DNA of 57,724 nucleotides, from contig JBFMDM010000002.1 of the NCBI GenBank assembly GCA_040753835.1, positions 1-57,724 on the forward strand. Reading direction: 5' to 3'. The stretch comes from Planctomycetota bacterium (lineage in GTDB: Bacteria > Planctomycetota > MHYJ01 > JACQXL01). Every line of letters begins with the position of its first letter. The stretch's first letter is position 1. The notes under the pieces are model-generated. The model was not told the origin of the DNA, searched no databases, and saw only the letters and a list, made by a program, of their open reading frames with translations. The position numbers and the translations under genes were made by a program. Shown piece after piece: positions 3,249 to 57,724 of this stretch.

Positions 3249-3986
3249 ATGTTATCTGCATCCAAATTAAAAGAATCAATAGAGAATATCAAGTCCCGGG
3301 TTAAGTCAGCCGCTCAGCGCGCGGGCCGGAACCCGGATGATATCACTATCGTAGCCGTAACCAAGACGGTCGGGGCGGAAACCCTGAAGGTTCTGTCGGA
3401 ATTGGGCTGGAAGGACATCGGCGAGAACCGGGTGCAGGACACGCTGGATAAGGCCAAGTCATTGGGCACAGAGACCGGGTTTGCCTGGCATATGATAGGC
3501 CACCTGCAGACCAATAAGGCCAAAAAGGCGGTCGGCTTGTTTGACTGGATTCACTCACTGGATTCCCTGCATCTTGCCGAGGAACTCCAGAAAGAGGCGG
3601 TAAAGGCAAACAAGACCCTGCGGGTCCTGATTGAGGTGAACGTGAGCACAGAGGCGAGCAAGGGCGGTATCAGGCCTGAGGAGTTGACGGACTTTTATCG
3701 CAAGGTAAAAGCCGCCCTGCGCCCTGGCGGGACTTCAGAACGGCGGGCTGGGCTGGTCATCAGCGGGTTAATGACTATGGCGCCGCTGAGCGGCGACCCC
3801 GAAGCGTCCCGACCCTGGTTTAGAAAATTAAGGGAATTAAGGGATAAATTAAAGAGCGATTTTATTGACGCAGGCGGCTCTGAGGAACTAAAATATCTCT
3901 CAATGGGGATGAGCCAGGATTTTGAGGTGGCGGCGGAAGAAGGCGCCAATATCCTCAGAATCGGCACGGCCATATTCAAAGAATAA
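3249..3986 (+). CDS. yggS: YggS-family pyridoxal-phosphate-binding protein
   Basis: 245 aa. Family hallmarks: VAVTKTV, IGENRVQD, HMIGHLQTNKAKKAV, LSMGMSQDFEVAAEEGANILRIGTAIF. Confidence 0.8.
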   Translation: MLSASKLKESIENIKSRVKSAAQRAGRNPDDITIVAVTKTVGAETLKVLSELGWKDIGENRVQDTLDKAKSLGTETGFAWHMIGHLQTNKAKKAVGLFDWIHSLDSLHLAEELQKEAVKANKTLRVLIEVNVSTEASKGGIRPEELTDFYRKVKAALRPGGTSERRAGLVISGLMTMAPLSGDPEASRPWFRKLRELRDKLKSDFIDAGGSEELKYLSMGMSQDFEVAAEEGANILRIGTAIFKE

Positions 3987-4058: not shown

Positions 4059-7040
4059 ATGCCTAAACTGCTTGTAGAAAAAGGGCCGAATAAAGACCTG
4101 GAAATCACGGTCGGCAAGACCGTATTTGCCGGCCGGGATACCTCGGCGCATATTATGCTCACCGAGCCGATGGTCTCGCGCCTGCATTTCAAGATAGAGC
4201 GCCGCAAGGACGGTTATTTCCTGGTTGACCTGGATTCCCTGAACGGCACCTTTGTCAACCGGGCCCGGGTCAGGGAGCGGCTCTTAAAACCCGGGGATAT
4301 GATTCAGGTGGGCGACACCATATTCTCGTTCGTCTCGGACGACCCGGCGACCCAAGCCAAGTCGCTGGTCGGCAAAATCGTGGGCGGGTATTCCATCATA
4401 GAAAGAATCGGCCGGGGCGGGATGGGCACGGTCTACAAGGCGCTTCAGATTTCGCTCAACCGCACGGTGGCGCTTAAAATCCTTTCCGAGGATATGCTCA
4501 AGGACAAGACCTTTATTGATATGTTCCTGCGCGAGGCGCGCTCGGCCGGCCAACTGAACCACAACAACATCGTCCAGGTCTATGACGTCGGCCGGACCCC
4601 GGATGATATCTATTACTTCTCAATGGAGTTTATGCCCGGCGGCAGCATCCAGGAACTGCTGATAAAGAAACAACGGCTGCCGGCATTCCAGGCAACCAGG
4701 ATGATGTTGGATGCGGCAATGGGCCTGTCCTATGCGGAAAAGAAAGGCATTGTCCACCGCGACATCAAGCCGGATAACCTGATGATAAGCGAGGAGGAAA
4801 TCGTAAAAATCGGCGATTTGGGTCTGGCCAAGAGCGTCTCGGCCTCGCAACAGGAACAACAGTCCAATACCCTGATGGGCACGCCGCACTACCTGGCGCC
4901 GGAACAGGCCCTGGGCAAGTCGGTTGACCACCGGTGCGATATCTATTCGCTGGGCGCCAGTTTCTACCGCATCGTTTCGGGCGTAACGCCATACAGCGCC
5001 TCGTCCGTAAAGGATATTATCACCAAGAAATTAAAGGAAGACCCCAGGCCTCTTAAGGAGGTCCTGCCTTCGGTTCCGGATTCGGTGGTCGGGGTTATCA
5101 GCCGGATGATGAGGCGTAATGTTGAGGAACGTTACCAGAACGCCGGCGAACTTGTTAAGGAACTGCAGCAGTTGAAAGATGAATTGGACCCATCCAAGCC
5201 GCTCACCTCGCCAGGCGGAGCCGGCGGGGGCAAACCGACCGCCGCCGCCTTTGGCGAGCCTCGCCCTGCGGGGCGGGAAGGCGGATTTCTGGAGCCCGCA
5301 GGGCCGGTATTACCTGAAGCGGAAAAGGCATTGCGCAAATCGCCTTTTGTCCGGTTCGGCATCCCAGCCATCCTGCTGGTAATGACCATAGGCGTGGTGT
5401 TCCTGCTTTTCAGTTATTATTATTCAGATATAAACAAGACGCTTCCGGATAACGGAAACACCACAAACGGGCCGATTCACCCGCCTCCGGTGACCGGAAG
5501 CGAATACGAGGAGAAACTGGCCCGTGAATACCTGAGCCGGGCGCGCGCCTTTGAGGCCGGGCTTTCTTCGGACAGCGCCAGGGAGGCGGTGCACGACGGC
5601 ATAAAGTTGTTTGAGCGCGTCATCAACGAATGCGCCGGCGCCAAGGACGCCGTAAAAGACGCGCTGGAAGGGATTAACCGCCTTAACAAACTCCTTAAGA
5701 CCCTGGATGAACGGGACAAGCAGCGGCAGGCGGAAAAGGACACCCTGGCCCTTCTTGGCCAACTGGAGGACCGGATTAACGCCAATCTCAAGGCGCTCCT
5801 TGATGCGGCGGATTCTGCGGTCAGGGGAACCCAAATGGCCGAGAATTTCCTGAACACCTCGCTGGCTGAATTGGACGATTTCCTCCGGACCAATCCGCGT
5901 TTCGCCTCGGTTACCGAACGGGCTGAAGGGAAAAAGACATCCCTGACCAAGTGGTTCAAGTCCTGCCAGGCCGCGGGCGAGAAATATCGGACGCTTACCG
6001 AGCAGGCGGAAATCGCCGTCAAGAACGAAAGATTCGCCCAGGCGCTTAAATCCGTCAACGACTTCATTAACAACCCGGCTTACCAGAACACCATCTATTA
6101 TAATATTGCCAGGAATTACCACGCCCTGGTGGAATCGCGAGCCGATAAATCGTTCTCAGACCTGATGCTTCGGGTGGAAGACCTCAAGGATAAGGGCCAG
6201 TTAACCGAGGCCCAGAAGTTGCTGGCCGGAACGCAGGGTTTGTACGGCATAGAAAAAATAGAGGCCCGGATAAAGGAATATCTGGACTGGTTCAAGGGCC
6301 AGGGGGACAAGATTTACGAACAACTGCTGCGGAAAGAAGCCGCGGATTTTCCTCAATACCTGATGTCGCTTTCCTGGTTCCTGCAAAGCGGCCGGTTTGA
6401 CGACTGGGCCGCAAAGGAAGGCCAGATGAAAACCGCCTTCCAAACCAGGGAATACAAGGAAAAGGCCGGGCAGTATCTTTCCCTGATAAAGATGGAAAAG
6501 GGCATTATTGACCGCTTTATTGACCGGTTCAACACGCGGCGGATTGACCGGCCCGTGCTCCAGGGTCGGGAAATCGCATCTATAGACACCGGAAACGGGC
6601 TAATTTATTTTGTCTCCAAGGAAACCCCGCCCCTGAGATTCCAAGAAATATCCATCCGGGACTGGGAACTCTGCCTGACCGGCGGCTGGGATTTTGACGC
6701 CCGGGATTGTTTTGATTTCGCCATGCTCTGCATCTGCCGGGGCGGCAATATCCCCAAAGCCGAGGAGTTCTTCAGCAAATCCCTGACCAAGAAACCCAAC
6801 CGGGAACTCCAGGAACTGCTCAAGACATACCGGCCCAAGGAGAAACTTGAGGAGTTGAAGAAGAACCGCGAGGATGAAGCCGGGATGTTCAGCCAGATAG
6901 CCGATAAATTATACAACGAAAAACAGCCCGGGGCGCTGGACGCCTTCCAACTCCTGCGCTACCGATACGTCAACACCCTGGTCTATACCAACAACAAGAC
7001 GTCCATAGACACCAAGATTAAATTATTGGGAGGAAAATAA
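4059..7040 (+). CDS. FHA-domain Ser/Thr protein kinase with one TM helix and a large extracytoplasmic helical domain
   Basis: 993 aa. FHA-like N-terminus (GRDTSAHIMLTEPMVSRLHFKIERRKDGYFLVDLDSLNGTFVN). Hanks kinase motifs: GRGGMGTVYKA, VALKIL, HRDIKPDNLMI, DLGLA, GTPHYLAPE. TM segment FGIPAILLVMTIGVVFLLFSYYY, then about 540 aa of helical or coiled-coil-like sequence. Confidence 0.85.
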   Translation: MPKLLVEKGPNKDLEITVGKTVFAGRDTSAHIMLTEPMVSRLHFKIERRKDGYFLVDLDSLNGTFVNRARVRERLLKPGDMIQVGDTIFSFVSDDPATQAKSLVGKIVGGYSIIERIGRGGMGTVYKALQISLNRTVALKILSEDMLKDKTFIDMFLREARSAGQLNHNNIVQVYDVGRTPDDIYYFSMEFMPGGSIQELLIKKQRLPAFQATRMMLDAAMGLSYAEKKGIVHRDIKPDNLMISEEEIVKIGDLGLAKSVSASQQEQQSNTLMGTPHYLAPEQALGKSVDHRCDIYSLGASFYRIVSGVTPYSASSVKDIITKKLKEDPRPLKEVLPSVPDSVVGVISRMMRRNVEERYQNAGELVKELQQLKDELDPSKPLTSPGGAGGGKPTAAAFGEPRPAGREGGFLEPAGPVLPEAEKALRKSPFVRFGIPAILLVMTIGVVFLLFSYYYSDINKTLPDNGNTTNGPIHPPPVTGSEYEEKLAREYLSRARAFEAGLSSDSAREAVHDGIKLFERVINECAGAKDAVKDALEGINRLNKLLKTLDERDKQRQAEKDTLALLGQLEDRINANLKALLDAADSAVRGTQMAENFLNTSLAELDDFLRTNPRFASVTERAEGKKTSLTKWFKSCQAAGEKYRTLTEQAEIAVKNERFAQALKSVNDFINNPAYQNTIYYNIARNYHALVESRADKSFSDLMLRVEDLKDKGQLTEAQKLLAGTQGLYGIEKIEARIKEYLDWFKGQGDKIYEQLLRKEAADFPQYLMSLSWFLQSGRFDDWAAKEGQMKTAFQTREYKEKAGQYLSLIKMEKGIIDRFIDRFNTRRIDRPVLQGREIASIDTGNGLIYFVSKETPPLRFQEISIRDWELCLTGGWDFDARDCFDFAMLCICRGGNIPKAEEFFSKSLTKKPNRELQELLKTYRPKEKLEELKKNREDEAGMFSQIADKLYNEKQPGALDAFQLLRYRYVNTLVYTNNKTSIDTKIKLLGGK

Positions 7041-10907: not shown

Positions 10908-10992
10908 ACCACAGATTCCACAGATTTCGCCGATTAAGGGAACGCAAGCATAATTTTCCCGACTATCGTCGGGAGCGTCAAAGGAGAATATT

Positions 10993-11517: not shown

Positions 11518-12678
11518 ATGCTGAAGCGCCTACAGGAAGAGATGACTGAATTAAACCGCGAAGGGTTGTTGCGCAAGCCGCGGGTGATTTCCGATATTGA
11601 CGGCGTGCGGGTGAAAATAGAAGGTCGGTGGTACGTTTCGTTCTGCTCCAACGACTACCTGGGCTTGGCCCAGCATCCGGCCCTGAAGCAAGCGATGATT
11701 AAGGCAACTAAAGAGTTCGGGGCCGGGGCCGGCGCGGCACGGCTATTGTCCGGCACAACCACCCTGCACCATCAATTAGAGCGGGAGATTGCCCGGTTCA
11801 AGCAAGCGGATGACGCCCTGCTGTTCACCTCTGGCTATGCGGCCAATTTAGGCGTGATTACCACGTTGGTCAAGAAAGATGATATTATCTTCTGCGATGA
11901 ACTCAACCACGCCTCGCTGGTGGACGCCGCGCGGCTTACTAAAACGCAGTTGCATATCTATCGCCATTGTGACGCCGCTCACCTGGAATCGCTCCTGCGA
12001 AAATCCAAAATCCAAAGTCCAAAATCCAAAATCTATATTATTACGGATGCGATTTTCAGCATGGATGGTGACGGGGCGCCATTAAAGGAAATTGTCCGGC
12101 TGGCCGGGAAATACAAAGCATATACGATTGTGGACGAGGCGCACGGCACAGGCGTATTCGCCAAGAACGGCCGCGGCTGGTGCGAGGCGCAAGGGCTGGG
12201 GAAGAAAGTAAACGTCATCATCGGCACGGCCAGTAAGGCCCTAGGCTCGCTGGGCGGATTCGTTTCGGGTAAGCAGGTATTGATAGATTATATCCGAAAC
12301 AAGTCCCGGCCTTTTATATTCACAACCGCCCTGCCTGCGGGCACGTGCGCCGCGACTATTGCGGCGTTAAAGGTTCTCGGGTCAGAGCCGGGCTTGCGTA
12401 AACGGCTTTGGGATAATACGGATTATATGAAACGCCGGCTGGAGCAAATGGGATACGGCCTTAGAAACTCGGTCTCGCCCATTATTCCGATATTAATCGG
12501 GGACACTAAAAAGACCGTGGCAATCTCTGAGGCGCTCTGGAAAAAGGGGCTGTACGTTCCGGCCATCCGGCCGCCCACCGTGCCTGAAGGCCAGAGCCGC
12601 CTGCGCATCACGGTCACGGCAATGCATACCGGGAAACAGATGGATGGGCTTCTGGAAGAATTGCGTAAGCAACTATAG
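11518..12678 (+). CDS. bioF: 8-amino-7-oxononanoate synthase-like PLP-dependent acyltransferase (BioF/Kbl family)
   Basis: 386 aa. Motifs: SNDYLGL, DELNHASLVD, FSMDGD, VDEAHGTGV, GTASKALGSLGG (PLP lysine). BioF versus Kbl cannot be settled by eye. Confidence 0.8.
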   Translation: MLKRLQEEMTELNREGLLRKPRVISDIDGVRVKIEGRWYVSFCSNDYLGLAQHPALKQAMIKATKEFGAGAGAARLLSGTTTLHHQLEREIARFKQADDALLFTSGYAANLGVITTLVKKDDIIFCDELNHASLVDAARLTKTQLHIYRHCDAAHLESLLRKSKIQSPKSKIYIITDAIFSMDGDGAPLKEIVRLAGKYKAYTIVDEAHGTGVFAKNGRGWCEAQGLGKKVNVIIGTASKALGSLGGFVSGKQVLIDYIRNKSRPFIFTTALPAGTCAATIAALKVLGSEPGLRKRLWDNTDYMKRRLEQMGYGLRNSVSPIIPILIGDTKKTVAISEALWKKGLYVPAIRPPTVPEGQSRLRITVTAMHTGKQMDGLLEELRKQL

Positions 12679-16240: not shown

Positions 16241-17629
16241 ATGCCGTTTAATAACGAATTAAAACAGCGTGTCCTGGAAAAACTCAAGCCCTCTATGGAT
16301 AATATCTGGCTGAAGGAGCTTAATTTCATAGAGGAGCCGGAAGGCACGCTGAAGGTGCCGCTACCCAACGTTTTCTACGTGGATTATTACAGGAAGAATT
16401 TCCTTTCCCTTATAGAGCAGACCGTATCGGAGGTGGCCGGCCGCGGTTACAATATAACCCTTATTGCCCCGCCCGAGCAGGGACGGCTGTTCACGGATAT
16501 TCTTGTGACCAAAGATATGGGGCGCCGCCCGGCTAAGGATGGCAGAGAGCCGCCCGTTACTCCATCCGCCAATAAACCGGCCGGCAAGAACGATTTTACC
16601 CTGAATGAAAATTACACCTTTGACAGATTTGTGGTGGGCCTGTGCAACCGGATGGCGCATGCGGCGGCCCAAGCCGTGGCAACCAATCCCGGCAAGGCCT
16701 ATAATCCTTTGTTCATCCACGGCGGCGTGGGACTGGGCAAGACGCATCTCCTGCAGGCCGTCTGCCATCAGGTCCTCGCCCAGCGTCCTGACTGTTCCAT
16801 TTACTACCGTTCCGGCGAGGGATTTGTCAACGACTATATCATGGCCGTAAAGAACAACGCCTTTGAGAAATTCCGCCAGTCCTGCCGCTCCAAGGATATG
16901 ATGATAATAGACGACATCCATTTTCTCGGCGCCGGGGAAAAAGCGGCCAGCCAGGAGGAATTCTTTCATACCTTTAATGCCCTGCATAACAACCAGAAGC
17001 AGATTATTCTTTCCAGCGATTCGCCGCCCAAGGAGATACCGCTTCTGCAGGACCGGCTGGTTTCCCGTTTTAACTGGGGAATGGTGGCCCGCTTGGAGAC
17101 GCCCGACTTTGAGACGAGGGCGGCAATCCTAAGGAAGAAAGCCGAGGGTTATAAAATAGAACTGCCTGAGGACGTGGTGAATTTCATCGCCGAGGTTATT
17201 AACACGAATATCCGCGACCTGGAGGGCGCCCTAATCCGGGTCATCGGCCTGTCCCGCAGTTCCGGCCAAAACCCCACGGTTGCCCTGGCAACCGAGGCAT
17301 TAAAGGATGTTGTGGGCGCATCTTCGCGCCGAATAAAGGTGGCAAACATTATTGATATTATTGCCGGCTATTTTAACCTCTCGGCCGCGGACCTGCAGTC
17401 CAAGACGCGTCTGAAGTCCGTATCCCTGGCCCGGCAAATCGGGTTTTACCTGACCCGCCAGTTAAAACCGGACATGTCCCTTGAAGAAATCGGCGCGGCT
17501 TTCGGGGGACGGGAGCATTCCACGGTCCTGCTGGCCATAGAAAAAATCCGCAAACGCCTCCAAAAGGACGCCCAGTTCAGGGAAACCGTTAATCTCCTTA
17601 CCTCTGAAGTCAGGAAGAAATCGGTTTAG
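16241..17629 (+). CDS. dnaA: chromosomal replication initiator protein DnaA
   Basis: 462 aa. AAA+ Walker A (GGVGLGKTHLLQAV), DDIHFL box, and a C-terminal DNA-binding signature (SLEEIGAAFGGREHSTVLLAIEKI). Confidence 0.95.
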   Translation: MPFNNELKQRVLEKLKPSMDNIWLKELNFIEEPEGTLKVPLPNVFYVDYYRKNFLSLIEQTVSEVAGRGYNITLIAPPEQGRLFTDILVTKDMGRRPAKDGREPPVTPSANKPAGKNDFTLNENYTFDRFVVGLCNRMAHAAAQAVATNPGKAYNPLFIHGGVGLGKTHLLQAVCHQVLAQRPDCSIYYRSGEGFVNDYIMAVKNNAFEKFRQSCRSKDMMIIDDIHFLGAGEKAASQEEFFHTFNALHNNQKQIILSSDSPPKEIPLLQDRLVSRFNWGMVARLETPDFETRAAILRKKAEGYKIELPEDVVNFIAEVINTNIRDLEGALIRVIGLSRSSGQNPTVALATEALKDVVGASSRRIKVANIIDIIAGYFNLSAADLQSKTRLKSVSLARQIGFYLTRQLKPDMSLEEIGAAFGGREHSTVLLAIEKIRKRLQKDAQFRETVNLLTSEVRKKSV

Positions 17630-20003: not shown

Positions 20004-22969
<2,966 letters not shown>

Positions 22970-23549: not shown

Positions 23550-24659
23550 GTGAATAAAGAAACCGTAGAGATGCTCAAACGTCTAACCGACGCCAACGGC
23601 GTGCCTGGTTACGAATCAGAAGTGGCGGAGGTAATCCGGAGGGAGTTGACCGGCCTTGTTTCATTCTCCTACGACAAACTGGGTAGCATCGTCTGCGAGA
23701 AAAAGGGCTCAAGCCCTTCGCCCAAAATAATGCTCCCCGGCCACATGGACGAGGTCGGCTTTATGGTCACCCGCATTACCGAAGACGGATTCATCAAGTT
23801 CACGATGTTAGGCGGCTGGTTACCGCAGTATATGCTGGCGCAGAGAGTGGTCGTCAAAACCAGCAAGGGCGACATCCCGGGCATCATCGGCGCCAAGCCC
23901 ATCCACATTATGACCGAAGAGGAGCGCAAGAAGGTGCCGGACAAGAAAGACCTATTTATTGACATCGGCGCCAGGGACGAAAAGGATGCGGCCAGAATCG
24001 GCGTCCGGCCCGGCGACCCGATTATCCCGGTCGCGCCTTTTACCCAAATGGCCAATCCTGATTATCTCCTGGCCAAGGCCTGGGACGACCGGCTTGGCTG
24101 CGCCCTGTTCATTGACGTAATCAAGAACCTCTCCGCCAAAGGCGGATCAGCCTCCGGTGGAAAGGGCAGAAAACATCCCAATACGGTCTACGGCGTGGGC
24201 ACGGTCCAGGAAGAGGTGGGCACGCGCGGCGCGCACACCTCGGTGCGCAAAATTAATCCGGACGTGGCCCTGGTCTGCGAGGTCGGCATTGCCCAGGACG
24301 TGCCGGGCGGCGAGAAGAATGCCGGCGTATTGGGCAAGGGGCCGCAGATTACCATCTACGACCGCGGGATGATACCCAATCTGGCCCTGCGCGACTTCAT
24401 TATGGACACGGCCGAAAAACACAAGATACCATACCAGATACAATCAATGGAAGGCGGGATGACAGACGGCGGCCCGATTCACCTCAGCGCCGAGGGCGTG
24501 CCCTGTATTTATTTAGGCGTCCCGACCCGGTATATCCACTGCCATTCGGGCATCATCCACAAGCAGGACTATGACAATACCGTGCGCTTGATTACCGAGG
24601 TGGTCTTAAAACTGGACGCCAAGACCGTGAATGGCTTTACCCCGCGCATAAAAGATTAG
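23550..24659 (+). CDS. M42-family aminopeptidase (FrvX/YpdE-like)
   Basis: 369 aa, GTG start. Motifs: LPGHMDEVGFMV, AWDDRLGC, TVQEEVGTRGA, HCHSG. Contains an in-frame copy of the GC-rich double hairpin. Confidence 0.8.
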   Translation: MNKETVEMLKRLTDANGVPGYESEVAEVIRRELTGLVSFSYDKLGSIVCEKKGSSPSPKIMLPGHMDEVGFMVTRITEDGFIKFTMLGGWLPQYMLAQRVVVKTSKGDIPGIIGAKPIHIMTEEERKKVPDKKDLFIDIGARDEKDAARIGVRPGDPIIPVAPFTQMANPDYLLAKAWDDRLGCALFIDVIKNLSAKGGSASGGKGRKHPNTVYGVGTVQEEVGTRGAHTSVRKINPDVALVCEVGIAQDVPGGEKNAGVLGKGPQITIYDRGMIPNLALRDFIMDTAEKHKIPYQIQSMEGGMTDGGPIHLSAEGVPCIYLGVPTRYIHCHSGIIHKQDYDNTVRLITEVVLKLDAKTVNGFTPRIKD

Positions 24660-24820: not shown

Positions 24821-25660
24821 ATGAAAAATGAGTTAACGCCAGTGACCAAAATAGCCGTCTTCCGCGGCGCGGAAATCCGTAAGACCACCCACAAAAACGA
24901 ATGGTGGTTTGTCGTGGAGGATGTGGTCTTTGCCCTGACGGACTCAGTCAACCCTAAGGACTATATCAATAAGATGCGTGTAAGAGACGAAGAATTAAAC
25001 AAAGGGTATGGATAAATTGTCCATACCCTTCCGGTTAAGACAATGGGCGGAGTTCAGCGGATGAACTGCGCCAATACCGAAGGGATATTCCGTATCATCC
25101 AGTCCATCCCCTCGCCCAAGGCCGAGCCCTTCAAGCGCTGGCTGGCCCGGGTCGGTTACGAACGGGTCAAAGAAATAGAAGACCCGGAACTGGCCACCAA
25201 ACGGACGAGGGCATTATATAAGGCCAAGGGCTATTCGGACGACTGGATAGAAAAACGAATGCGCGGGATTGCCATCAGGGAAGAACTGACCGACCAGTGG
25301 AAAAAGCACGGGGTTGAGGAAGACCGGGAATACGAGATTCTGACCGCGGAAATCTCCAAGGACACTTTCGGTCTTACCCCCAGCCAGTACAAGAAACTAA
25401 AGAACCTCAAACGTGAGAATCTGCGCGACCATATGAACGACCTGGAACTCATCTTCTCTATGTTAGATGAGGCCTCCACCAGCCAAATCACCAAGGTGGA
25501 GCATCCCAAGGACTTTAGCGAAAATAAGGCCGTCTCCCGCCGGGGCGGCAATGTGGCCGGTATCGCCCGTAAGAAACTGGAGCAGGAAACCGGTCGCAAG
25601 GTGGTCAACAAGCAAAACTATTTAGCCCAGCCGCAGAATAAATACTTAAAGAATAAATAA
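24821..25660 (+). pseudogene. BRO-N / prophage-antirepressor-like gene interrupted by one in-frame TAA
   Basis: Track ORFs 24821-25015 and 25043-25660 are in the same frame (25043-24821 = 222). Read through the TAA at 25013-25015, the product is continuous: ...EELNKGYG*IVHTLPVKTMGGVQRMNCANTEGIFRIIQSIPSPKAEPFKRWLARVGYERV.... The N-terminal FRGAEIR...EWWFVVEDV is BRO-N-like. Confidence 0.7.
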
Positions 25661-25757: not shown

Positions 25758-26043
25758 TTTCTGGCAAAGGCAAAGGGGATTTGGTAGGATACAGATAAAT
25801 AATTCGGCCCTGTGCCAAAGGCGCTGGTCGCGCGCACCGCCAGGCGCACAGCGGGTACATGCTGTCCCCCGAATTACGAGTGATATATATATTTATTAGC
25901 GGATGAATTGAATATGGCGTCCCCCGAACTTTCCAAGGGTATCCTGGACAAAACCAAATCCGTAACCACAGATAAACGCAGATAAACACTGATTTCCCAA
26001 GCACTTATAACCCTTAACTGTGCACTTTTGACTTAAATTTTGG

Positions 26044-26101
26044 TCCCGCAGTTCTGCGGGATCTAAAAGCCAGTAACGACCAAAGGTCTAACTGGCTCTA
26101 A
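26044..26101. repeat. TAAC-hairpin element, copy A
   Basis: TCCCGCAG-ttc-CTGCGGGA followed by AAGCCAG-TAAC-GACC-aaa-GGTC-TAA-CTGGCTCT. Confidence 0.8.
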
Positions 26102-26103
26102 GA

Positions 26104-26418
26104 GGGGATAGGGTGGGGTCTATGGGGGGTGGGGGTGGGGTCTGGTATGCCTGACCGACCAAACGGGTGGTGGTTTAAGGCAAATCTGATGGACATAACC
26201 GCCCAGACCAGTAGACCTGTCTGATAGGACTGGCGGGCCTCTCCGACCAGATGGACAGGGGATGGCGACCTTACCGGAAGGGGCTGGCGCCGAGACCGGG
26301 GGACTTACCCGACCACACGGGTGGGTCTGTCCGACCATACGAGTGGGAGCTTACGCCGAGATTAGGAGGGATGACCGACCATATCGGTAGGTGGTGCGGC
26401 CGATACCCGGAGGAATTT
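26104..26418 (+). repeat. G-rich degenerate array of about 22-bp iteron-like repeats
   Basis: Eight contiguous units start at 26243, 26265, 26288, 26308, 26331, 26354, 26375 and 26397 (consensus CCGACCAnAnnGGnnGGG + 4-6 nt). Outliers sit at 26155 and 26199. GGGTGGGGTCT occurs twice (26111, 26133) within long G-runs. The 20-24-bp period is not a multiple of 3. Confidence 0.75.
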
Positions 26419-26475
26419 GCTATTATACAAGCAAATAGTCCCGACACAAAATTTTGCAGATTTTTAGTATTTTTC

Positions 26476-26504
26476 TTGACAATATCATCACATTTATATA
26501 GCAT
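26476..26504 (+). promoter_or_regulatory. candidate promoter for the 26549 gene
   Basis: TTGACA (26476-26481), 17-nt spacer, TAGCAT (26499-26504). Preceded by a T-rich UP-like tract and located 45 nt upstream of the ATG in a very AT-rich stretch. Confidence 0.4.
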
Positions 26505-26548
26505 AATATTAACAGATATAACTAAATAGATATATTAAGGAGTAAAAG

Positions 26549-27067
26549 ATGCAAGAACAAAAGGAATACCTTACGTCAGAAGAAGTTATGAGTTTGCTAA
26601 ATATTGCTCGTCCAACACTCTATTTGTGGGTAAAATTAGGTAAGCTGACTCCAATAAAAATGGAAGGTAAATTGCTTAGATTTAGTAGGCTTGAAATTGA
26701 GCGACTTCTACCACCGAATAAAACAGGTGTTTATGCTTGGGTTTCCACAAGTAACGATAAGGCAAAAGCGATTGCTGAAATACAAAACCATTTAAATGGC
26801 CAACCAGAATATAAGTTCATTTATTTAGATGAATCACGACCCGACCGTTTTAAGGCACGTATATTAATAAAAGATACCAAATCGGGGAAGTGGATAGATC
26901 CTGGTACGGCCCCGGGAGGAATGACACTAAGGGGGGTAACCGACTTACACAAAAAAGGTGGATATATTTTTCTGGGAACACAGGAGCCATGGCAAATAGA
27001 AAGCATCAGAATAGAAAATGACGGGTGCTCAAATTATATAGCTATTTGGGTCGATAAAGTGAAATAA
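26549..27067 (+). CDS. excisionase/MerR-type HTH DNA-binding protein with an uncharacterised C-terminal domain
   Basis: 172 aa. N-terminal YLTSEEVMSLLNIARPTLYLWVKLGKLTPIKMEGKLLRFSRLEIERLL is the Xis-family helix-turn-helix pattern. The remaining 110 aa are unassigned. Confidence 0.6.
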   Translation: MQEQKEYLTSEEVMSLLNIARPTLYLWVKLGKLTPIKMEGKLLRFSRLEIERLLPPNKTGVYAWVSTSNDKAKAIAEIQNHLNGQPEYKFIYLDESRPDRFKARILIKDTKSGKWIDPGTAPGGMTLRGVTDLHKKGGYIFLGTQEPWQIESIRIENDGCSNYIAIWVDKVK

Positions 27068-27077: not shown

Positions 27078-28745
27078 ATGAAACAATATCAACAATATAT
27101 TAACTACGGACAAAAGGCGGAAAAAAGGGGAGACGATAAATTAGCGATAAAAGAGTATACCAAAGCTATTAAATTAGACCCCTATAACAGAGTCGCATAT
27201 ATTTATCGAGCACTTCTTTATTCCGCTGGTGATAAACTCAAGAAAGCCGAAGATGATTATACTAAATTAATAGATTTAGAATCTGATAAAGTAAATGCGT
27301 ACGCACAAAGAGCAAATTTTTATCATACATGGATGCGGGATTATAAAAAGGCAGAAATAGATTATACCAGGGCAATAAAAATTACTCCGGGTTCAAGCGC
27401 ACCCTATGTAGAACGAGGGTATTTCTATCTTTCTATCAAGAAGTATGATTTAGCATTAGAGGATTTTGTAACATTTTTTACCAGTACAGATATAAAAGTC
27501 GCTGGTATTTATTATTGTCGTGATTGGTTAGGATTTGACATCTGGATGCCTCCCTATGAGGAAAAGGCAGTATGGCTTAAAAAACTGCTGAAACGCCTTT
27601 CTGGTAAAAGAATAGACAGCCAGAAATTCGTTACATTTTTTTATTATATAACTAAAGCATTAGCATCGTATGAAAGGGAAAATTGGACTGAATCATTAAA
27701 GTTATTGCGTCAGGCAAAACAAGTAGGACAATATTTTAAGGAATTAAAAAGTCTTATTTCCATGTTGAGTGATTTGTCGGAAATTATTTTATTAGATAAG
27801 CGCTTAAAAGAAGCATTGTTTTTGCCGCCTTCGTCCCAGATATTAATAAAACAAATCTCCCCACTTTATAGCAGGTTTAAAAATATTGCAAGGAGAATGT
27901 CCACGCTAAAAAATACTGATGCTGTGGTTCTAATATGGGGATTTGATTTGAATAATTTGATTAACGTTAAGCGAAATATTTGTGCTGTGATTTTGGGGAA
28001 ACTAAATAAACTATGTGAAAAAGAACTATTTTCCTTATTATCGCATGGATCTGCTACATTCAATTTTTCTCGACAACGAGAATGTCTGCTTGAATATATT
28101 TTAGATGAAAGCGAAAAAGAGTGCCGGATGTGGAATTTAAGCAAAGCGTTAGATGGTATTAAGGCGGTAAGACGATTCATTAAATCTTCAGATTTAAGTA
28201 CGCTTAAAAATGTAATGGGGTTAGATGGCGTTCTTACCCTGCAAGCAATTTCTCAAATAAGCGATAAAATTTCTGAAAGAGTAATTAAAAATCTCAAAAA
28301 GGGAAATTTGTGTAGCCAGACAATTGAACAGCCCCAGAAAATATTACTGCCTAAAAATAAAGATTTTCCTGTGCCTCCTGGTACCCAGTGGTCGGATTTA
28401 TTCTTGGCAGAAATAAACGGCGAAATGATAAGAGCCAGGATAGACAATGTCGTCCGACGCTATAATTTTATAGAGTTCGGTTGTAAAGACGGACGCACCT
28501 CTAAACTTACACCTGATAAACAATGGCGAACATTGATTGACTTAATAAAACATAATGGCGAAATATCATACAAAACTCCATTAGGTAAACCGCCTACAAA
28601 AATGACCATTTCCAGAGTTGCTAAGATACTCAAAACTATCTTCCCTATTTCAGGCAGTCCATTTTACCCCTATAAGGACTTCAAATCCTATAAAGCGAAA
28701 TTTAATATAGAAGATATTTCGGTAGTTAACCCCGACCTTACATAG
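27078..28745 (+). CDS. TPR-repeat protein, C-terminal two-thirds unknown
   Basis: 555 aa, AT-rich codons. The N-terminal 130 aa carry 3-4 TPR-like units (AIKEYTKAIKLDPYNRVAYIYRALLY..., AEIDYTRAIKITPGSSAPYVERGYFY...). Confidence 0.6.
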   Translation: MKQYQQYINYGQKAEKRGDDKLAIKEYTKAIKLDPYNRVAYIYRALLYSAGDKLKKAEDDYTKLIDLESDKVNAYAQRANFYHTWMRDYKKAEIDYTRAIKITPGSSAPYVERGYFYLSIKKYDLALEDFVTFFTSTDIKVAGIYYCRDWLGFDIWMPPYEEKAVWLKKLLKRLSGKRIDSQKFVTFFYYITKALASYERENWTESLKLLRQAKQVGQYFKELKSLISMLSDLSEIILLDKRLKEALFLPPSSQILIKQISPLYSRFKNIARRMSTLKNTDAVVLIWGFDLNNLINVKRNICAVILGKLNKLCEKELFSLLSHGSATFNFSRQRECLLEYILDESEKECRMWNLSKALDGIKAVRRFIKSSDLSTLKNVMGLDGVLTLQAISQISDKISERVIKNLKKGNLCSQTIEQPQKILLPKNKDFPVPPGTQWSDLFLAEINGEMIRARIDNVVRRYNFIEFGCKDGRTSKLTPDKQWRTLIDLIKHNGEISYKTPLGKPPTKMTISRVAKILKTIFPISGSPFYPYKDFKSYKAKFNIEDISVVNPDLT

Positions 28746-28914
28746 TAACAAATCTGGTGCCTAAAATCAGAAATTCTTAAAAATTACCTCTTCTTCTATT
28801 CTGTTCTAACCGTCTGATTCTCAGGCTGTTATAGCATTTCTTCCCGGGAATTTGCGTCTCAAATCAATTATTACTAGTAACTTGTTACAATCTTATTAGT
28901 AGAAGGACGCAAAT

Positions 28915-29009
28915 GAGAGTCAGCCCTTCTAACCCGCTATTCGGCGGGTCTAAAACATTGTAACATCCCGATTTCAATAACACTCATCGGGATTAACTGT
29001 CTCTCAAGA
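28915..29009. repeat. compound TAAC-hairpin element (copy G) forming the leader of the 29021 gene
   Basis: Outer stem GAGAGTCAG / CTGTCTCTC encloses TAAC-CCGC-tattcg-GCGG-gtc-TAA and TAAC-ATCCCGAT-13 nt-ATCGGGAT-TAA. It is followed by AAGAAAGGAtaatctATG. Confidence 0.7.
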
Positions 29010-29020
29010 AAGGATAATCT

Positions 29021-29608
29021 ATGCATAAACCAAATAAATGCCGGTATTGTTCGGTCAAGGAGTTGCAGAAGGAGAAAAATAAGCACGAGAAAAAGGCGTT
29101 TGAGAACGTCTTTCCTGACATCTTGCCTGCCTTGAAAGGTCTTGCTTGTAAATACTGTAATGATTTATTGCCTGTTTACGACCCTTTCAGCGAAGTAGTA
29201 TACGCCGCCTATCAGGCATTGAAAATGGGATACCATCAAAAGAAAGATATTATCCGTATCGCAGCAAATCACCTCATCCGTTTGGCAAGAAAAGAATCTA
29301 ATCATAGAGAATTTCTAATAGAACATTCTGAGGAAATCGCCGAGAAGTTCCATCATCCGTATTCTTATCCGCCTGACTATCGCCTGCAGGATAAATATCA
29401 GTGGAATTATCAGGGGATTCAGATGCTGGATGAAGCGGTGCAGGATAAGGTCTTGAGTCAGATAGAAGTTGAGGTGCTGGCTGAATATGTCTGCTACGAG
29501 CGGACTTTTAAGTGGATTGCCAAGGGACAGAACCTTACAATACAAAAAGTTGCTCAACTTTATGAAACCGCTTTAGAAAAACTAAAAAGGAGTATATCCG
29601 ATGAATGA
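29021..29608 (+). CDS. small sigma-70-family-like protein (region 2/region 4-like) with N-terminal Cys pairs
   Basis: 195 aa. CRYC...CKYC at the N-terminus. The C-terminal LSQIEVEVLAEYVCYERTFKWIAKGQNLTIQKVAQLYETALEKLKR resembles a sigma region-4 HTH. A YvrJ-like gene follows, an arrangement known for YvrI-type sigma factors in Firmicutes. Confidence 0.5.
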   Translation: MHKPNKCRYCSVKELQKEKNKHEKKAFENVFPDILPALKGLACKYCNDLLPVYDPFSEVVYAAYQALKMGYHQKKDIIRIAANHLIRLARKESNHREFLIEHSEEIAEKFHHPYSYPPDYRLQDKYQWNYQGIQMLDEAVQDKVLSQIEVEVLAEYVCYERTFKWIAKGQNLTIQKVAQLYETALEKLKRSISDE

Positions 29609-29745: not shown

Positions 29746-29871
29746 ATGTTCAAACTAATGTCAGGTTTCTGGAAACGGGTCATTAAGACGATAATTGAAA
29801 TCGTCTTGGATCTGATTCAGAAGAAAAGGCAACAGTAATCCCTAACGGGATAAGAGCCAGTAACAACTAAA
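29746..29871 (+). CDS. hypothetical 41-aa peptide
   Basis: ATG preceded by AAGGAAG. MFKLMSGFWKRVIKTIIEIVLDLIQEEKATVIPNGIRASNN. The 3-prime end runs into repeat copy B, so the extent is uncertain. Confidence 0.25.
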
Positions 29872-29888
29872 GTTTAACTGGCTCTAAA
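29839..29888. repeat. TAAC-hairpin element, copy B
   Basis: ATCCC-taac-GGGAT followed by AAGAGCCAG-TAAC-AAC-taaa-GTT-TAA-CTGGCTCT. Confidence 0.8.
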
Positions 29889-30101
29889 CACACCCCTGCC
29901 ACTCTTGATAGAGGGGACTTTGGGTGAAAATTACCAGTCCGGTTGGGGCTATCTCAGGTATCAGTGGTCCCCGCCTCTATCTTTTTGATGGGTGCGGGGC
30001 TTGAATAGCCACGGCAAGATACGATAGCCCCGCCGGCTGTTTACAGCCACAGATTATACAGATTCTTTGTGTCCTTTGTGGCGAGAAGAAAGGAAACGAA
30101 A

Positions 30102-30893: not shown

Positions 30894-30994
30894 GCCACAG
30901 ATTACACAGATTGTATTCTGTAAAATTACCACGAGGACACAGAGAACGCAAAAGTCCTTTTGGGCTTTGTGCGCTTTGTGTCCTTTGTGGTGAA

Positions 30995-32230: not shown

Positions 32231-32471
32231 AATTACTTGAGTGGTCGGGGAGTTTTTTTGCACCCTCGTTAGGACCCTGTCATTCCTGCCCCTGCTTTCG
32301 CAGTGGTAAACTTGTCCCCGCGTAGGCGGGGAGCAGGAATCCAGCCGTTTCCGGGTCTACTGGATTTCCGTTTTCACGGGAATGACAAATGGGCGGGAAT
32401 ACACTTTTGCTTATAATCGCCATTTTAACCAATAAAATCAAGGGTTATATTCCCCGACCCCTCAATTACTT
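32231..32471. mobile_element. MITE-like element with terminal inverted repeats
   Basis: TTGAGTGGTCGGGGA (32237-32251) and its near-perfect complement TCCCCGACCCCTCAA (32451-32465), 14/15. The interior carries GTCATTCC...GGAATGAC-type palindromes. There is no ORF. Confidence 0.4.
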
Positions 32472-34577: not shown

Positions 34578-34610
34578 AGATAAATATTCTATTCCCTCGT
34601 CTATCGGGAT

Positions 34611-34648
34611 AAGAGCCGGTAACATCCCTGCGGGATTAACCGGCTCTA
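34611..34648. repeat. TAAC-hairpin element, copy C (rplP-rpmC spacer)
   Basis: AAGAGCCGG-TAAC-ATCCC-tgc-GGGAT-TAA-CCGGCTCTA. The last 3 nt are the complement of the rplP TAG stop. Confidence 0.8.
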
Positions 34649-35056
34649 ATGTATACGTTTCACCAGTTTTGTATTGAACGGCATCTTATGGGCCACGCTG
34701 TTAAAGACCTTGCGGGCGATGTCCTCGGTTACGCCGTCTATCTCAAACAGGACAGTGCCTTTTTTCACCTCGGCTGCATAATATTCCGGCTCGCCCTTGC
34801 CGGTGCCCATCCTGGTTTCAGCCGGCTTGGCTGTAATCGGTTTGTGCGGGAATACCCTGAGCCAGAATTTTCCGGTCGGCGGCATCTGATGCGTAATCGC
34901 CACCCGGCCGGCTTCTATCTGCTGGGCTGAAAGCCAGCCGCGCTCCAGGCACATCAATCCGTATTCGCCAAAAGCGACATAATTTCCCCTTTGGGCGTCG
35001 CCTTTCATCTTGCCTCTTTGCCACTTACGGTATTTTATCCTTTTGGGCATTAACAT
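34646..35056 (-). CDS. rplP: 50S ribosomal protein L16
   Basis: MLMPKRIKYRKWQRGKMKG..., 136 aa. Confidence 0.95.
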   Translation of the reverse strand: MLMPKRIKYRKWQRGKMKGDAQRGNYVAFGEYGLMCLERGWLSAQQIEAGRVAITHQMPPTGKFWLRVFPHKPITAKPAETRMGTGKGEPEYYAAEVKKGTVLFEIDGVTEDIARKVFNSVAHKMPFNTKLVKRIH

Positions 35057-42859: not shown

Positions 42860-42868
42860 TGTTATAGG

Positions 42869-42926
42869 AGTCCCGCCTTCGGCGGGATTAAGAGCCAGTA
42901 ACGACATTTGGTCTAACTGGCTCTAA
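42869..42926. repeat. TAAC-hairpin element, copy D (abuts the tRNA-Phe 3-prime end)
   Basis: GTCCCGCC-ttcg-GGCGGGAT-t-AAGAGCCAG-TAAC-GAC-attt-GGTC-TAA-CTGGCTCTAA. Confidence 0.8.
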
Positions 42927-42927
42927 G

Positions 42928-42999
42928 TGGGCAGGGCCGGGGTCGAACCGGCGACACGTGGATTTTCAGTCCACTGCTCTACCACTGAGCTACCTACCC
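42928..42999 (-). tRNA. tRNA-Phe (GAA)
   Basis: Minus strand: GGGTAGG TA GCTC AGTGGTA GAGC A GTGGA CTGAAAA TCCAC GTGTC GCCGG TTCGACC CCGGC CCTGCCC A. This gives a full cloverleaf with anticodon loop CU-GAA-AA. CCA is not encoded. Confidence 0.9.
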
Positions 43000-48070: not shown

Positions 48071-49399
48071 TTAACGCCGGCGGAATCCGGACCCTGACGG
48101 CATAAACGGGTTGGCGGTCGCCGCCTCCTGCTTGCTTATCGTGCCGGTCACTACTTCCTGGCCTTCCTTGATATCGCCGTTTAATATCTCGGTAAAAGAG
48201 CCGTCCGTAATGCCGGTTCTGACGCTGACCGGCTTAAGTTTTCCGTTATTTAATATCCAGACCTGTTTCCGGGACGGCGTCTCTGTTTTATCCTTCCCGT
48301 TCGGCTTTGCCTCAGGATAAGAGCCAGTAACGACCTGCGGTCTAACTGGCTCTAATGGTTTCCGGCCCGTTCCCGGCTGGTGTGCTGGAGCGCCTGATAC
48401 GGCTTCCCGTTCCCGGCCTTCGGGCGCCTCCGCGGCCTTGTATTTATCAGCATCCTGGGGCACAAAGCGTAGGGCCGCATTGGGCACCCGCAGGACATCT
48501 TCGCGGCGCTCTATCTCAAACGAGAGATTGGCCGTCATCCCGGGCAGGAGTTTTTCCTCCGGATTGTCCGCATAGATAATCACCGTATAGGTCACCACGT
48601 TCTGGACCGTTGTGGGCGATAGCCGGATTTGCGCCACCCGGCCGCTGAACTTCTTTTCCGGATGGGCGTCCACCGTGAAATTGACCATCTGGTCCATCAG
48701 AATCTTGCCGATGTCCGCCTCGGCCACGCTGGCCTGTATCTGGATTTTGTTGAGGTTGTTGGCAATTATGAACAGGGTCGGGGCCGAGAGCGAGGCGGCC
48801 ACGGTCTGGCCCTCGTCCACGTTGCGCGAGACCACAATGCCATCTATCGGCGATTTGATGGTGGTATAGGCCAGGTTTATCTCCGACATCTTCAGGGACG
48901 CCTGGGACTGCTCGATACCGGCCTTGGCCAGTTTCAACTGGGCAATCAGCGAATCAAATGACGCCACCGCCGTGTCCAATTCTGATTGCGATATGAGGTC
49001 TTTCTTAGCCAGTTCCTGGGCCCGCTTGAATTCGTTCTCGGCCTGGGTGAGATTCGCTTCCACCCGCTCGGCATCGGCGATGCTGCGCGCCAGACTGGCC
49101 CGGTCTTGGGCGACCCGCGCCTCGTAGGACGCCGGGTCTATCTGGGCGATGATGTCGCCTTCCTTGACCCGAGAATTGAAATCCACGTATAACTTCTTGA
49201 CAGGCCCGGTTACCTGCGTGCCGACCTGGACCTGGAGCAGGGGCTGGACCACGCCGCTGGAAGTAACGGTCTTGATAACCGTGCCCTTGTCCGCCTTGGC
49301 GGTCTTATAGGATACCGCGCCGTTGGCGCCTCCGCCTAGGGTAAAATACAGGACCGCGGCCGCGGCCAGGACCGCAATCACGACGATAATCTTTTTCAT
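48071..49399 (-). CDS. efflux periplasmic adaptor protein (HlyD/MacA family)
   Basis: 442 aa. N-terminal TM, a coiled-coil hairpin (ARVAQDRASLARSIADAERVEANLTQAENEFKRAQEL...), beta-barrel segments, and a low-complexity linker containing repeat copy E. Confidence 0.88.
   Translation of the reverse strand: MKKIIVVIAVLAAAAVLYFTLGGGANGAVSYKTAKADKGTVIKTVTSSGVVQPLLQVQVGTQVTGPVKKLYVDFNSRVKEGDIIAQIDPASYEARVAQDRASLARSIADAERVEANLTQAENEFKRAQELAKKDLISQSELDTAVASFDSLIAQLKLAKAGIEQSQASLKMSEINLAYTTIKSPIDGIVVSRNVDEGQTVAASLSAPTLFIIANNLNKIQIQASVAEADIGKILMDQMVNFTVDAHPEKKFSGRVAQIRLSPTTVQNVVTYTVIIYADNPEEKLLPGMTANLSFEIERREDVLRVPNAALRFVPQDADKYKAAEAPEGREREAVSGAPAHQPGTGRKPLEPVRPQVVTGSYPEAKPNGKDKTETPSRKQVWILNNGKLKPVSVRTGITDGSFTEILNGDIKEGQEVVTGTISKQEAATANPFMPSGSGFRRR
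48315..48355. repeat. TAAC-hairpin element, copy E, inside the MacA-like coding sequence
   Basis: GGAT-AAGAGCCAG-TAAC-GACC-tgc-GGTC-TAA-CTGGCTCTAA. It is translated on the minus strand as ...LEPVRPQVVTGSYP.... Confidence 0.8.
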
Positions 49400-54096: not shown

Positions 54097-54103
54097 AAGG
54101 GGG

Positions 54104-54520
54104 TTCGGGGGACAGCCCCGCTATCCAGCGGGACTCCGCGGCGGCTCCGCATACCGGATTTGAATAAGTAATTATTGCGCTATCGGGTTTTGGAGATTAT
54201 AATCAATTCTGATGATAGCCCTTAAGCCAATTAAGAAACACAATTCACCGACTACTGTCTACAGTCCACTGCCTGCTTCCCACTATATCCAGGACGGCTT
54301 GGGAAGTATCCGCAATCTCGTGTCATCTGCGGAGGCAGTGGTTAACTCGTATGATTATTACGGTTTTGGCGAATCCCTATCAGCCAGTGAGCAAGTGAGC
54401 AATCGTTACAGGTTTACCGGCCGGGAGTGGGACAACGAATCCAGCACCTACCGCTACCGGGCCAGGGAGTATAATCCGGCCAGCGGAAGATTTACGGCCA
54501 GAGACCCGATTGGGTATTTA
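54104..54520 (+). repeat. RHS cassette junction repeat, copy 1
   Basis: About 417 bp nearly identical and collinear (constant offset of 1625 nt) with 55729-56145. It covers 108 nt upstream of the ATG plus the first 100 or so codons. Confidence 0.9.
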
Positions 54521-55723: not shown

Positions 55724-55728
55724 CGGAA

Positions 55729-57592: not shown

Positions 57593-57636
57593 AGTCGGTC
57601 CGGTGACACCCACCTCGCCTCAGTGGTGAATTGGAA

Positions 57637-57724
57637 TTCGGGGGACAGCCCCGCTATCCAGCGGGACTCCGCGGCGGCTCCGCATACTGGATTCAAATAA
57701 GTAATTCTTGCTTCACTGGATTAT
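57637..57724 (+). repeat. RHS cassette junction repeat, copy 3 (truncated by window end)
   Basis: TTCGGGGGACAGCCCCGCTATCCAGCGGGACTCCGCGGCGGCTCCGCATA... is identical to the heads of copies 1 and 2, then diverges moderately. This implies a further cassette beyond the window. Confidence 0.85.

Follow-up and report, generated by a model that had tools for sequence, protein, structure and literature searches.

What function might be served by a long, non-coding array of degenerate 22-bp repeats that stands immediately 5′ of a gene for an Xis-type DNA-binding protein in a bacterial chromosome? The array occupies positions 26097-26426 of the window, by which we mean the whole stretch of DNA analysed here, 57,724 nucleotides of contig JBFMDM010000002.1 from the Planctomycetota assembly GCA_040753835.1, an origin-proximal piece of the chromosome of a Planctomycetota-type metagenome-assembled genome. 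An earlier inspection of the letters (hereafter, the sequence-only reading) had seen there about ten degenerate repeats next to an AT-rich tract and a helix-turn-helix (HTH) gene, and had compared this architecture to an iteron-type replication origin, a partition site or an arm-type recombinase site. Our analysis revealed that the array is longer and far more regular than was then apparent, that arrays of the same build are found elsewhere in the same clade, and that the pairing of such an array with an HTH_17 gene recurs. Between a cooperative protein-binding platform and a replication origin, the platform is more likely. Specifically, we tentatively propose, with a confidence that falls slightly short of even, that the array is a phased platform to which a protein of the BldC/Xis type binds cooperatively, head-to-tail, and not an origin, a centromere or an attachment (att) arm.

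Register and conservation of the array

The array consists of 15 head-to-tail units in an exact 22-bp frame that starts at 26097 and runs for 330 bp without a single indel or phase slip. The autocorrelation is 0.49, 0.46, 0.48, 0.48 and 0.50 at lags 22, 44, 66, 88 and 110, respectively. At the adjacent lags of 21 and 23 bp, it is no more than 0.29 and 0.27, and the maximum over all lags in 1000 shuffles is 0.387. Thus, the repeats recognized in the sequence-only reading are real, but their number was underestimated and the spacing of 20-24 bp does not hold; the apparent variation arose because the units had been anchored on CCGA, which occupies two offsets in the unit. The two supposedly extra copies at 26155 and 26199 turned out to be in phase, as units 3 and 5. 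The mean identity between units is ~0.49, and because the units are so little alike, Tandem Repeats Finder (period 22, 2.1 copies) reports only units 1-2 and misses 13 of the 15.

The unit consensus, A1 C2. G4 G5. R7 G8 G9.. T12.. C15 C16 G17 A18 C19 C20 A21, agrees with CCGACCAnAnnGGnnGG, the consensus of the sequence-only reading. Conservation is unevenly distributed along the unit: G8 and G17 are retained in 14 of the 15 units, several columns are near random, and the column-to-column variation exceeds that expected under uniform decay from the consensus (P = 0.01 for all 15 units; 0 of 2000 simulations for units 3-15). Units 3-15 (26141-26426, plus strand) keep the strict 22-bp spacing and the core CCGACCA.AC.GG.RGG while being ~49% alike. 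The heptamer CCGACCA occurs five times within a stretch of 230 bp and 22 times in the whole window, compared with 6.9 expected, a number that none of 100 shuffles reached. Given that the similarity at lag 110 is as high as that at lag 22, and that the register is exact, the units appear to be constrained to a common motif and spacing instead of showing the gradient expected from recent duplication.

Units 1-2 (26097-26140, plus strand; TCTAAGAGGGGATAGGGTGGGG, TCTATGGGGGGTGGGGGTGGGG), the part detected by Tandem Repeats Finder, make up a G-run block, in which GGGTGGGGTCT occurs at 26111 and 26133, exactly 22 bp apart. In a scan for G-quadruplex (G4) motifs, the segment 26104-26129 was the sole canonical one of the 57.7-kb window. 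The G4 potential and the duplicated GGGTGGGGTCT of this block had been noticed before; what is added here is that the block belongs to the register. The purine bias of the plus strand was likewise borne out, with 37.6% G and 22.4% C. The base composition of the array (60% GC) is set off from that of the HTH gene (37% GC) by a sharp break at ~26.42 kb, exactly at the array end, where the GC content drops from 0.61 to 0.20 across ~150 bp.

Arrays of the same build in the clade

A sliding autocorrelation scan at periods of 22 and 44 bp was run over 3.26 Mb of DNA including the window, and two loci, L331 and L349, were added afterwards. Non-coding arrays with these periods were found only in the window and in Planctomycetota contigs of the same clade, and none in the ~3.1 Mb of other DNA scanned. 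The five additional arrays are those of L326 (8987-9364), with 17.2 units of TATCCCCTAAGCGGGGAGGGGC at 85% matches, which runs in phase into a G-run; L081 (20460-20745), with 13 units, the first of which (CCGACCAAAC) is shared with the window, and with GGGGTATC..GATACCCC hairpins behind the array; L001 (4236-4520), with 6.3 copies of 44 bp, that is, 13.0 units, preceded by a G-run; L331 (20592-20877), with 13 units of CCGACCGTACAAAGGGCGTAWY, for which the exact register was verified; and L349 (2472-2803), with 15.1 units of TCCAACCGAGCATATACCCCTA at 93% matches, with a C-run before and a G-run after it. Together with the window array (15.0 units), all six are intergenic and span a range of 13.0 to 17.2 units. 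The lag-22 autocorrelation of the other five is 0.58-0.89, with lags 21 and 23 at background, and the G- or C-run caps seen on other clade arrays are in phase with the units. The density of such arrays is about one per 30 kb of the sampled clade DNA. An 11-bp sub-period was absent from the autocorrelation of the window array and of the five clade arrays.

Among plasmids and phages, blastn yielded no sequence similar to the array. Pattern scans of IMG/VR and of JGI metagenomes for arrays of CCGACCA gave chance matches among the matches listed, mostly coding repeats, and two more specific scans of IMG/VR recovered no real array; a run of 2.5 units of CCGACCAGACAGGTAGGTCGCGC at the locus L305 was also judged to be a chance match. 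We found no description of such arrays in Planctomycetota in the literature. As a point of annotation, a public call of a 203-aa protein at L349 (2271-2882) is the 22-bp array read through; the unit contains no stop in any plus-strand frame, and the gene is likely false, so that arrays of this kind can be miscalled as protein genes.

What the arrays share is not readily expressed as sequence. A gapless circular comparison of the consensus units identified no significantly similar pair, and a position weight matrix built from the L331 array failed to retrieve that of the window; homology between the arrays was, accordingly, rejected as statistically unsupported. Only short cores are common to some of them, namely, CCGACC in the window and L331, and the first unit in the window and L081. 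As far as can be judged from these comparisons, the arrays have a blueprint in common, not a sequence. Nor is a function-linked gene common to all six loci. The TPR proteins encoded beside arrays, considered as a common factor, are similar only in their TPR repeats.

The main rival to the platform builds directly on these observations. The arrays could be a clade-specific satellite without sequence-specific function, in which an ancestral 22-bp array was homogenised separately at each locus by unequal crossing-over, the window copy being old and decaying and its adjacency to the HTH gene accidental. Such a satellite would account for a period that is shared while the unit consensuses are not significantly similar, for within-array identities that range from 93% in L349 down to 49% in the window, as for arrays of differing ages, for the location of the arrays in variable, island-rich regions, and for the failure to find a function-linked gene common to the six loci. 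Neutral decay, though, is expected to add indels, yet the register is exact even where the units are only ~49-60% alike (window, L331, L081). Furthermore, the uneven conservation of the columns, the narrow range of 13-17 units in all six arrays, and the position of both HTH_17 genes seen in the clade immediately 3′ of an array are not what a satellite would be expected to show. We therefore consider this explanation somewhat unlikely, while regarding it as the most serious competitor. The arrays also resemble minisatellites, repetitive extragenic palindromic (REP) sequences and bacterial interspersed mosaic elements in being intergenic, non-coding and lineage-specific, in their variable internal identity, in the inverted repeats of their units and in the hairpin module alongside, but in REP clusters the orientation alternates and the period is irregular and longer.

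The resemblance to REP raises the question of whether the array acts as single-stranded nucleic acid, as a run of REP-like short hairpins in a transcript or in the lagging strand, where it might be an mRNA stabiliser or terminator, a sponge for an RNA-binding protein, or a substrate of a REP-type transposase. Short inverted repeats are present in most units, with the form CCG..CGG in the window array, CCCC..GGGG in that of L326 and TAAGA..TCTTA in that of L001, and the predicted folding of the array region is, for either strand, somewhat better than that of shuffled sequences (z = -2.9 and -2.5). In addition, the window array is directly 3′ of a hairpin module with compensatory changes (see below), a faint Y1_Tnp (RAYT-like) gene is located near the gene for an M42 peptidase in L331-L333 and L351, and the L326 array begins 64 nt past a stop codon. 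The hairpin register, however, is not fixed between units or arrays: on inspection of the sequence, the conserved core CCGACC is a sequence motif without a conserved stem, candidate hairpins change register from unit to unit, and, in L331, the core would sit in a loop. Rfam searches of the window and the five related loci, at gathering and permissive thresholds, gave nothing relevant, and the enrichment of GGA in the array is marginal (9 observed versus 5.35 expected, P = 0.05). The arrays occur in every orientation relative to the flanking genes, with no consistent promoter or terminator, which argues against a dedicated RNA gene; in the window, a scan detected no promoter upstream of the array and no terminator downstream of it. 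Given the strict 22-nt spacing, which has no obvious use in RNA, the core that is a motif and not a stem, and the indifference to orientation, action at the level of DNA is favoured, and we hold a single-stranded role to be quite unlikely. More specific candidates of this kind were also rejected: a known RNA family, by the Rfam result; a CsrB/Rsm-type sponge RNA, because GGA enrichment is marginal, bounding promoters and terminators are missing and Rfam has no match; a type III toxin-antitoxin (ToxI-like) array, given units that are ~49% alike, a downstream winged-helix protein and no ToxN-type match in PADLOC or Pfam; and a CRISPR array, which would have repeats of 28-37 bp with unique spacers instead of contiguous 22-mers without spacers.

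The HTH protein and its pairing with the arrays

The gene adjoining the array (26549-27067, plus strand) starts 123 bp after it and encodes a protein of 172 aa. Residues 7-54 match Pfam HTH_17 with 37.9 bits (cut-off 27), and the protein passes TIGR01764 ('excise') with 29.3 bits (cut-off 28.8), in agreement with its earlier designation as Xis-type; the score against the NCBIfam BldC model NF033787, 23.1 bits, is below the cut-off of 77. A word-indexed search had made the protein look like an orphan, an impression that was overturned by a full HMMER search, which identified ~13 full-length relatives at 29-36% identity. Among viral contigs, there was one match, confined to the HTH domain and without an array. 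Whereas an AlphaFold2 model from the single sequence was unusable (mean predicted local distance difference test score, pLDDT, 47), the model built on the HMMER alignment reached a pLDDT of 89.5. In a Foldseek comparison, residues ~5-57 of this model matched BldC (6ama, 6amk) and the Xis of mycobacteriophage Pukovnik (4j2n) with a probability of 1.0, target TM scores of 0.77-0.81 and root-mean-square deviations of 1.5-1.7 Å, the identity to BldC being 33-35%. According to the model, then, this part of the protein is a winged helix-turn-helix of the BldC/Xis type. The remainder is a conserved, beta-rich C-terminal domain, for which Foldseek returned no reliable match.

That array and gene belong together was part of the sequence-only reading, and this idea is supported. 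The opposite view, that the array is unrelated to the gene, was suggested by the compositional break at 26.42 kb and by the arrays without an HTH neighbour, but was set aside on the evidence of L349. At that locus, an M42 peptidase gene, with a product 73% identical to that of the window, is followed by hairpins, a C-run, the 22-bp array, a G-run, a 72-bp AT-rich spacer and a gene for a 161-aa HTH_17 protein (31.1 bits, cut-off 27). The HTH domains of the two proteins are homologous (hhalign probability 94.8%, E = 5e-8, residues 1-66). Because L349 repeats the order M42-array-spacer-HTH_17, the pairing is no longer taken as accidental. Indeed, no more than two HTH_17 genes were seen in the ~190 kb of DNA sampled from the clade, and their starts are at distances of 72-123 bp from the end of an array; the probability that chance placed both of them there is, roughly estimated, of the order of 0.001. 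The pairing is also consistent with the predicted DNA-binding fold, which is known to form head-to-tail polymers along direct repeats (PMC5859096).

Thus, we propose that a winged-helix protein of the BldC/Xis type, for which the 172-aa protein encoded 123 bp downstream is the candidate, polymerises head-to-tail on the array, each 22-bp unit corresponding to one repeat of the filament. The AT-rich spacer between array and gene (26419-26548, plus strand), with an AT hairpin (ATTTGCT..AGCAAAT) at its start, was previously judged by eye to be under 30% GC and has 24.6%. It contains the promoter-like sequence TTGACA-17-TAGCAT noted earlier (26476-26504), which matches at 10 of 12 positions, and a second such site at 26509-26536. 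The site is there as described, but its standing as a promoter is less secure than was implied, given that, in a promoter scan, promoter-like sites were no more numerous than in shuffles. Between the end of the filament and the -35 element of the HTH gene itself, ~50 bp would remain, which makes plausible either autoregulation through the promoter region alongside or silencing of the acquired low-GC genes downstream. We infer the binding of the protein to the array, the stoichiometry and the regulatory outcome from the phasing and uneven conservation of the units, the array family, the recurrent pairing and the fold of the model.

The model for this proposal is BldC of Streptomyces, which forms asymmetric head-to-tail oligomers on variable numbers of direct repeats, two protomers occupying the 22-mer that is the smallest site bound with high affinity (PMC5859096). 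The two systems are alike in the DNA-binding fold, as predicted for the 172-aa protein, and in the use of direct repeats, located here just 5′ of the gene. Unlike the protein of the window, with its 172 residues and additional C-terminal domain, BldC has 68 residues and a single domain, and its repeats (AATTnnnnC) are AT-rich, ~9 bp long and present in 2-4 copies, whereas the array comprises 15 GC-rich 22-mers without AATT and without a half-period. The array would, by this comparison, work most like a BldC operator, while lying outside that family by sequence threshold, protein size and site composition. Excisionase sites offer a second parallel. The 172-aa protein appears to have the same winged-helix fold as Pukovnik Xis and passes the excisionase model, and the repeats are direct and helically phased, but the arrays of lambda Xis (X1-X1.5-X2), P2 Cox and 186 Apl have 3-7 sites spaced ~10-11 bp, compared with 15 units of 22 bp here, and neither an integrase nor an att core nor a boundary of an element was detected at the locus.

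Several observations weigh against the platform. The sequence-only reading had held that similar arrays at unrelated loci without nearby DNA-binding genes would speak against its view, and this was found in part: four of the six arrays are not accompanied by an HTH_17 gene, one of them, in L331, being followed by a gene that runs off the end of the locus. The proteins of the window and L349 are alike in the HTH domain only, and their C-terminal domains are not homologous. Given that the unit consensuses differ between arrays, one protein cannot read all of them via base contacts, and inheritance alone, as for satellite DNA, could account for the length of the units. The break from 60% GC in the array to 37% GC in the gene implies that the present pairing may be secondary. 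Finally, BldC recognizes AT-rich 9-mers, whereas the units here are GC-rich 22-mers without an 11-bp sub-period.

A further explanation, the one suggested originally, takes the array for an iteron origin, for the centromere of a partition system or for arm-type recombination sites, in each case on an island that is episomal or can excise; the HTH protein would be the initiator, centromere-binder or excisionase. The combination of direct repeats in phase, an AT-rich tract and a gene of the Xis family does recall such systems, and the array sits at the left boundary of a low-GC block missing in relatives. Iteron origins with 22-bp repeats, such as the gamma origin of R6K and that of pPS10, share with the array the head-to-tail units and the adjoining AT-rich tract. 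An iteron origin, though, has 3-7 repeats that hardly differ from one another, together with DnaA boxes and a gene for Rep, whereas the 15 units of the array, at ~0.49 identity, are far more degenerate than working iterons. As the sequence-only reading had already remarked, Rep, Par and integrase families are missing: Pfam, PHROGs, NCBIfam and PADLOC scans found none in any open reading frame (ORF) between 24.8 and 33.4 kb, and the six array loci are all devoid of genes for Rep, Par and recombinases. No cluster of DnaA boxes was detected in 25.0-27.2 kb, where there are two single one-mismatch sites and none inside the array. The centromeres parC of R1 and sopC of F are phased direct-repeat arrays that overlap the promoter of the gene for the binding protein, and the array resembles them in being a long, phased direct-repeat array over a promoter region; it differs in that no partition NTPase (ParA, ParM, TubZ) was found, in that the protein is predicted to be a winged helix and not a ribbon-helix-helix protein or ParB, and in that the arrays are chromosomal and many per genome. 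The low-GC block is not bounded by direct repeats, att-like or other, besides a dispersed hairpin module, and ARAGORN, used in a search for a tRNA or tmRNA remnant as an att site, gives only the tRNA-Phe at 42.9 kb; a likeness of the G-run to the antisense end of this tRNA, beside a copy of the module, was too weak to be used. Arrays of the same build reside at ordinary chromosomal loci, between housekeeping genes, and the L349 locus has a uniform composition of 48-49% GC, from which neither array nor gene stands out. With, in addition, nothing similar in plasmids or phages, a replicon or arm site is very improbable, and the suggestion of a hidden replicon is removed. The array is not the chromosomal oriC either, being 9 kb from the dnaA/dnaN region and devoid of a DnaA-box cluster.

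The low-GC block invites yet another explanation, namely, that the array is a recombination hot spot or landing pad, at which G4 or slipped structures promote breaks and the exchange of downstream cassettes. This would explain why different HTH genes and islands are found beside arrays and why the proteins downstream of the arrays in the window and L349 have only the HTH domain in common, and it fits with the GC break exactly at the array end, with the presence here of the only G4 motif of the window, and with the location of the arrays in variable regions. But G4 potential is slight or lacking in the units of L001 and L081, neither a junction nor a duplication of the target was identified, and the strict register and the range of 13-17 units would be left unexplained. 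We deem a landing pad improbable.

A broader view of the six arrays, which we consider unlikely, is that they represent an undescribed chromosomal system, with about one array per 30 kb, built to one blueprint (22 bp, 13-17 units and a G4-prone or C-run cap) from unrelated units. We know of no described family with a fixed 22-bp period, 13-17 units, G- or C-run caps and unrelated unit sequences. The arrays could be filament-nucleation platforms for BldC/Xis-like proteins, which would provide chromatin-like silencing or insulation of acquired DNA, or could stem from a ruler-type process that lays down 22-bp units; either form would set them apart from an ordinary satellite. If they are binding platforms, as we tentatively propose for the window array, they would exceed in size all natural direct-repeat operators known for proteins of the BldC/Xis fold, and this fold would be used outside Actinobacteria and phages, coating hundreds of base pairs beside acquired genes. 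Regardless, six arrays with one period, similar lengths and different sequences constitute a natural experiment that separates the constraint on spacing from that on sequence.

Surroundings of the array

The window carries, in this order, dnaA (16241-17629), dnaN, a DUF4190/DUF2950 gene, gyrB (20282-22969), a MogA-like gene and the M42 peptidase gene (23550-24659); dnaA and dnaN are at 16.2-19.0 kb, and the minimum of the GC skew is near 14 kb. The M42 protein has its closest matches, at 69-88% identity, among proteins annotated as Planctomycetes. In relatives with M42 proteins 84-88% identical, this gene is followed by a gene for a small membrane protein and then leuS, and the whole block of 24.7-32.3 kb is absent. 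Homology with these relatives picks up only within a short element resembling a miniature inverted-repeat transposable element (MITE), at 32332-32387. This palindromic element (GTCATTCCTGC ... GGAATGAC) occurs in the window at 32278-32390, in L081 at 11740-11815 and in L326 at 11646-11709, as well as in the region of the relative 5′ of leuS, and it marks the point where synteny restarts after the 7.6-kb block. At L349, the HTH_17 gene is followed closely by a 120-aa ORF that lies between two inverted copies of a MITE of ~150 bp (3580-3740 and 4335-4470), the terminal inverted repeats of which are AACCCGCATTATTCATA.

The left neighbour of the array's non-coding region is a BRO-N gene (24821-25660, plus strand) interrupted by a stop between 25015 and 25043. 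Its intact relatives in Planctomycetota, Omnitrophota and Marinimicrobia are ~280 aa long, with identities of 80-89% across these groups, and they match PDC-S13, a defence candidate in PADLOC (E = 1e-89). A phased array is present within ~2 kb at three of the four BRO-N loci examined. The same sequence of ~50 nt (GTAAACGGGAAAGTTTAAAATATCGGGAAAGAGAAAAGGGGATTGT) is found on both sides of the BRO-N gene in L329 (~850-900) and L328 (1440-1500), which suggests that the gene there is a cassette bounded by direct repeats. In the window, the 890-bp non-coding stretch 3′ of the BRO-N gene contains the array and gives way to the low-GC block (~37% GC versus ~54% for the genome), with genes for a 555-aa TPR protein and a 195-aa sigma-70-like protein (27078-29608, plus strand, ~37% GC) 3′ of the HTH gene. 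Beyond the block, where the GC content is back to ~53%, a 274-aa protein and a tail-fibre-like protein are encoded.

The two-hairpin module adjoins the array directly: its copy A (26036-26104, plus strand) ends in TCTAA, which opens unit 1. It consists of a variable GC hairpin (TCCCGCAG-tt-CTGCGGGA), a conserved hairpin AGCCAGTAAC-GACCaaaGGTC-TAACTGGCT and CTAA, and the dispersed form can be written as TCCC..GGGA, TAAG, AGCCAGTAAC, a stem-loop, TAACTGGCT and CTAA. Copy B (29826-29890, plus strand) is at the right edge of the low-GC block, so that the array and the genes for the HTH, TPR and sigma-like proteins are all enclosed between copies A and B. Further plus-strand copies in the window are at 34580-34652, 42862-42929 and 48286-48358, and a sixth is in L328 (6156-6244). 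Compensatory changes were observed in four of the 13 predicted pairs. The module has no match in Rfam and was not seen in the two closest relatives. One copy adjoins the 3′ end of the tRNA-Phe gene, and another is in frame within a MacA/HlyD-like gene, inside an insert of ~65 aa, like Rickettsia palindromic elements.

Several other repeats populate the region. The intergenic motif CCACAGATTAYACAGATT, often paired with TTTGTGTCCTTTGTGG, is present in the window at 10909-10926, 30047-30064 and 30895-30912 (a variant at 25967-25990), in L328 at 4271, 6057 and 7046, in L011 at 8926 and 8987, in L081 at 14787, and also in an Anaerolineales contig; the window and L328 have exact 22-mers of it in common, though the flanking proteins are only ~32-38% identical. 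A near-identical repeat of ~130 bp (TTCGGGGGACAGCCCCGCTATCCAGCGGGACTCCGCGGCGGCTCCGCATACCGGATTTGAATAAG...), which contains the promoter-like TTGAAT..TATAAT, is located 3′ of three successive plus-strand genes in a second low-GC region (54102-54230, 55727-55850 and 57635-57724), and 15-nt pieces of it are found, in reverse orientation, upstream of the array (25861-25875 and 25916-25928). Finally, a 36-bp repeat with 4.2 copies at 94% identity (51698-51847) falls within an adenine-deaminase-like ORF (51099-52985), where it would encode a 12-aa repeat.

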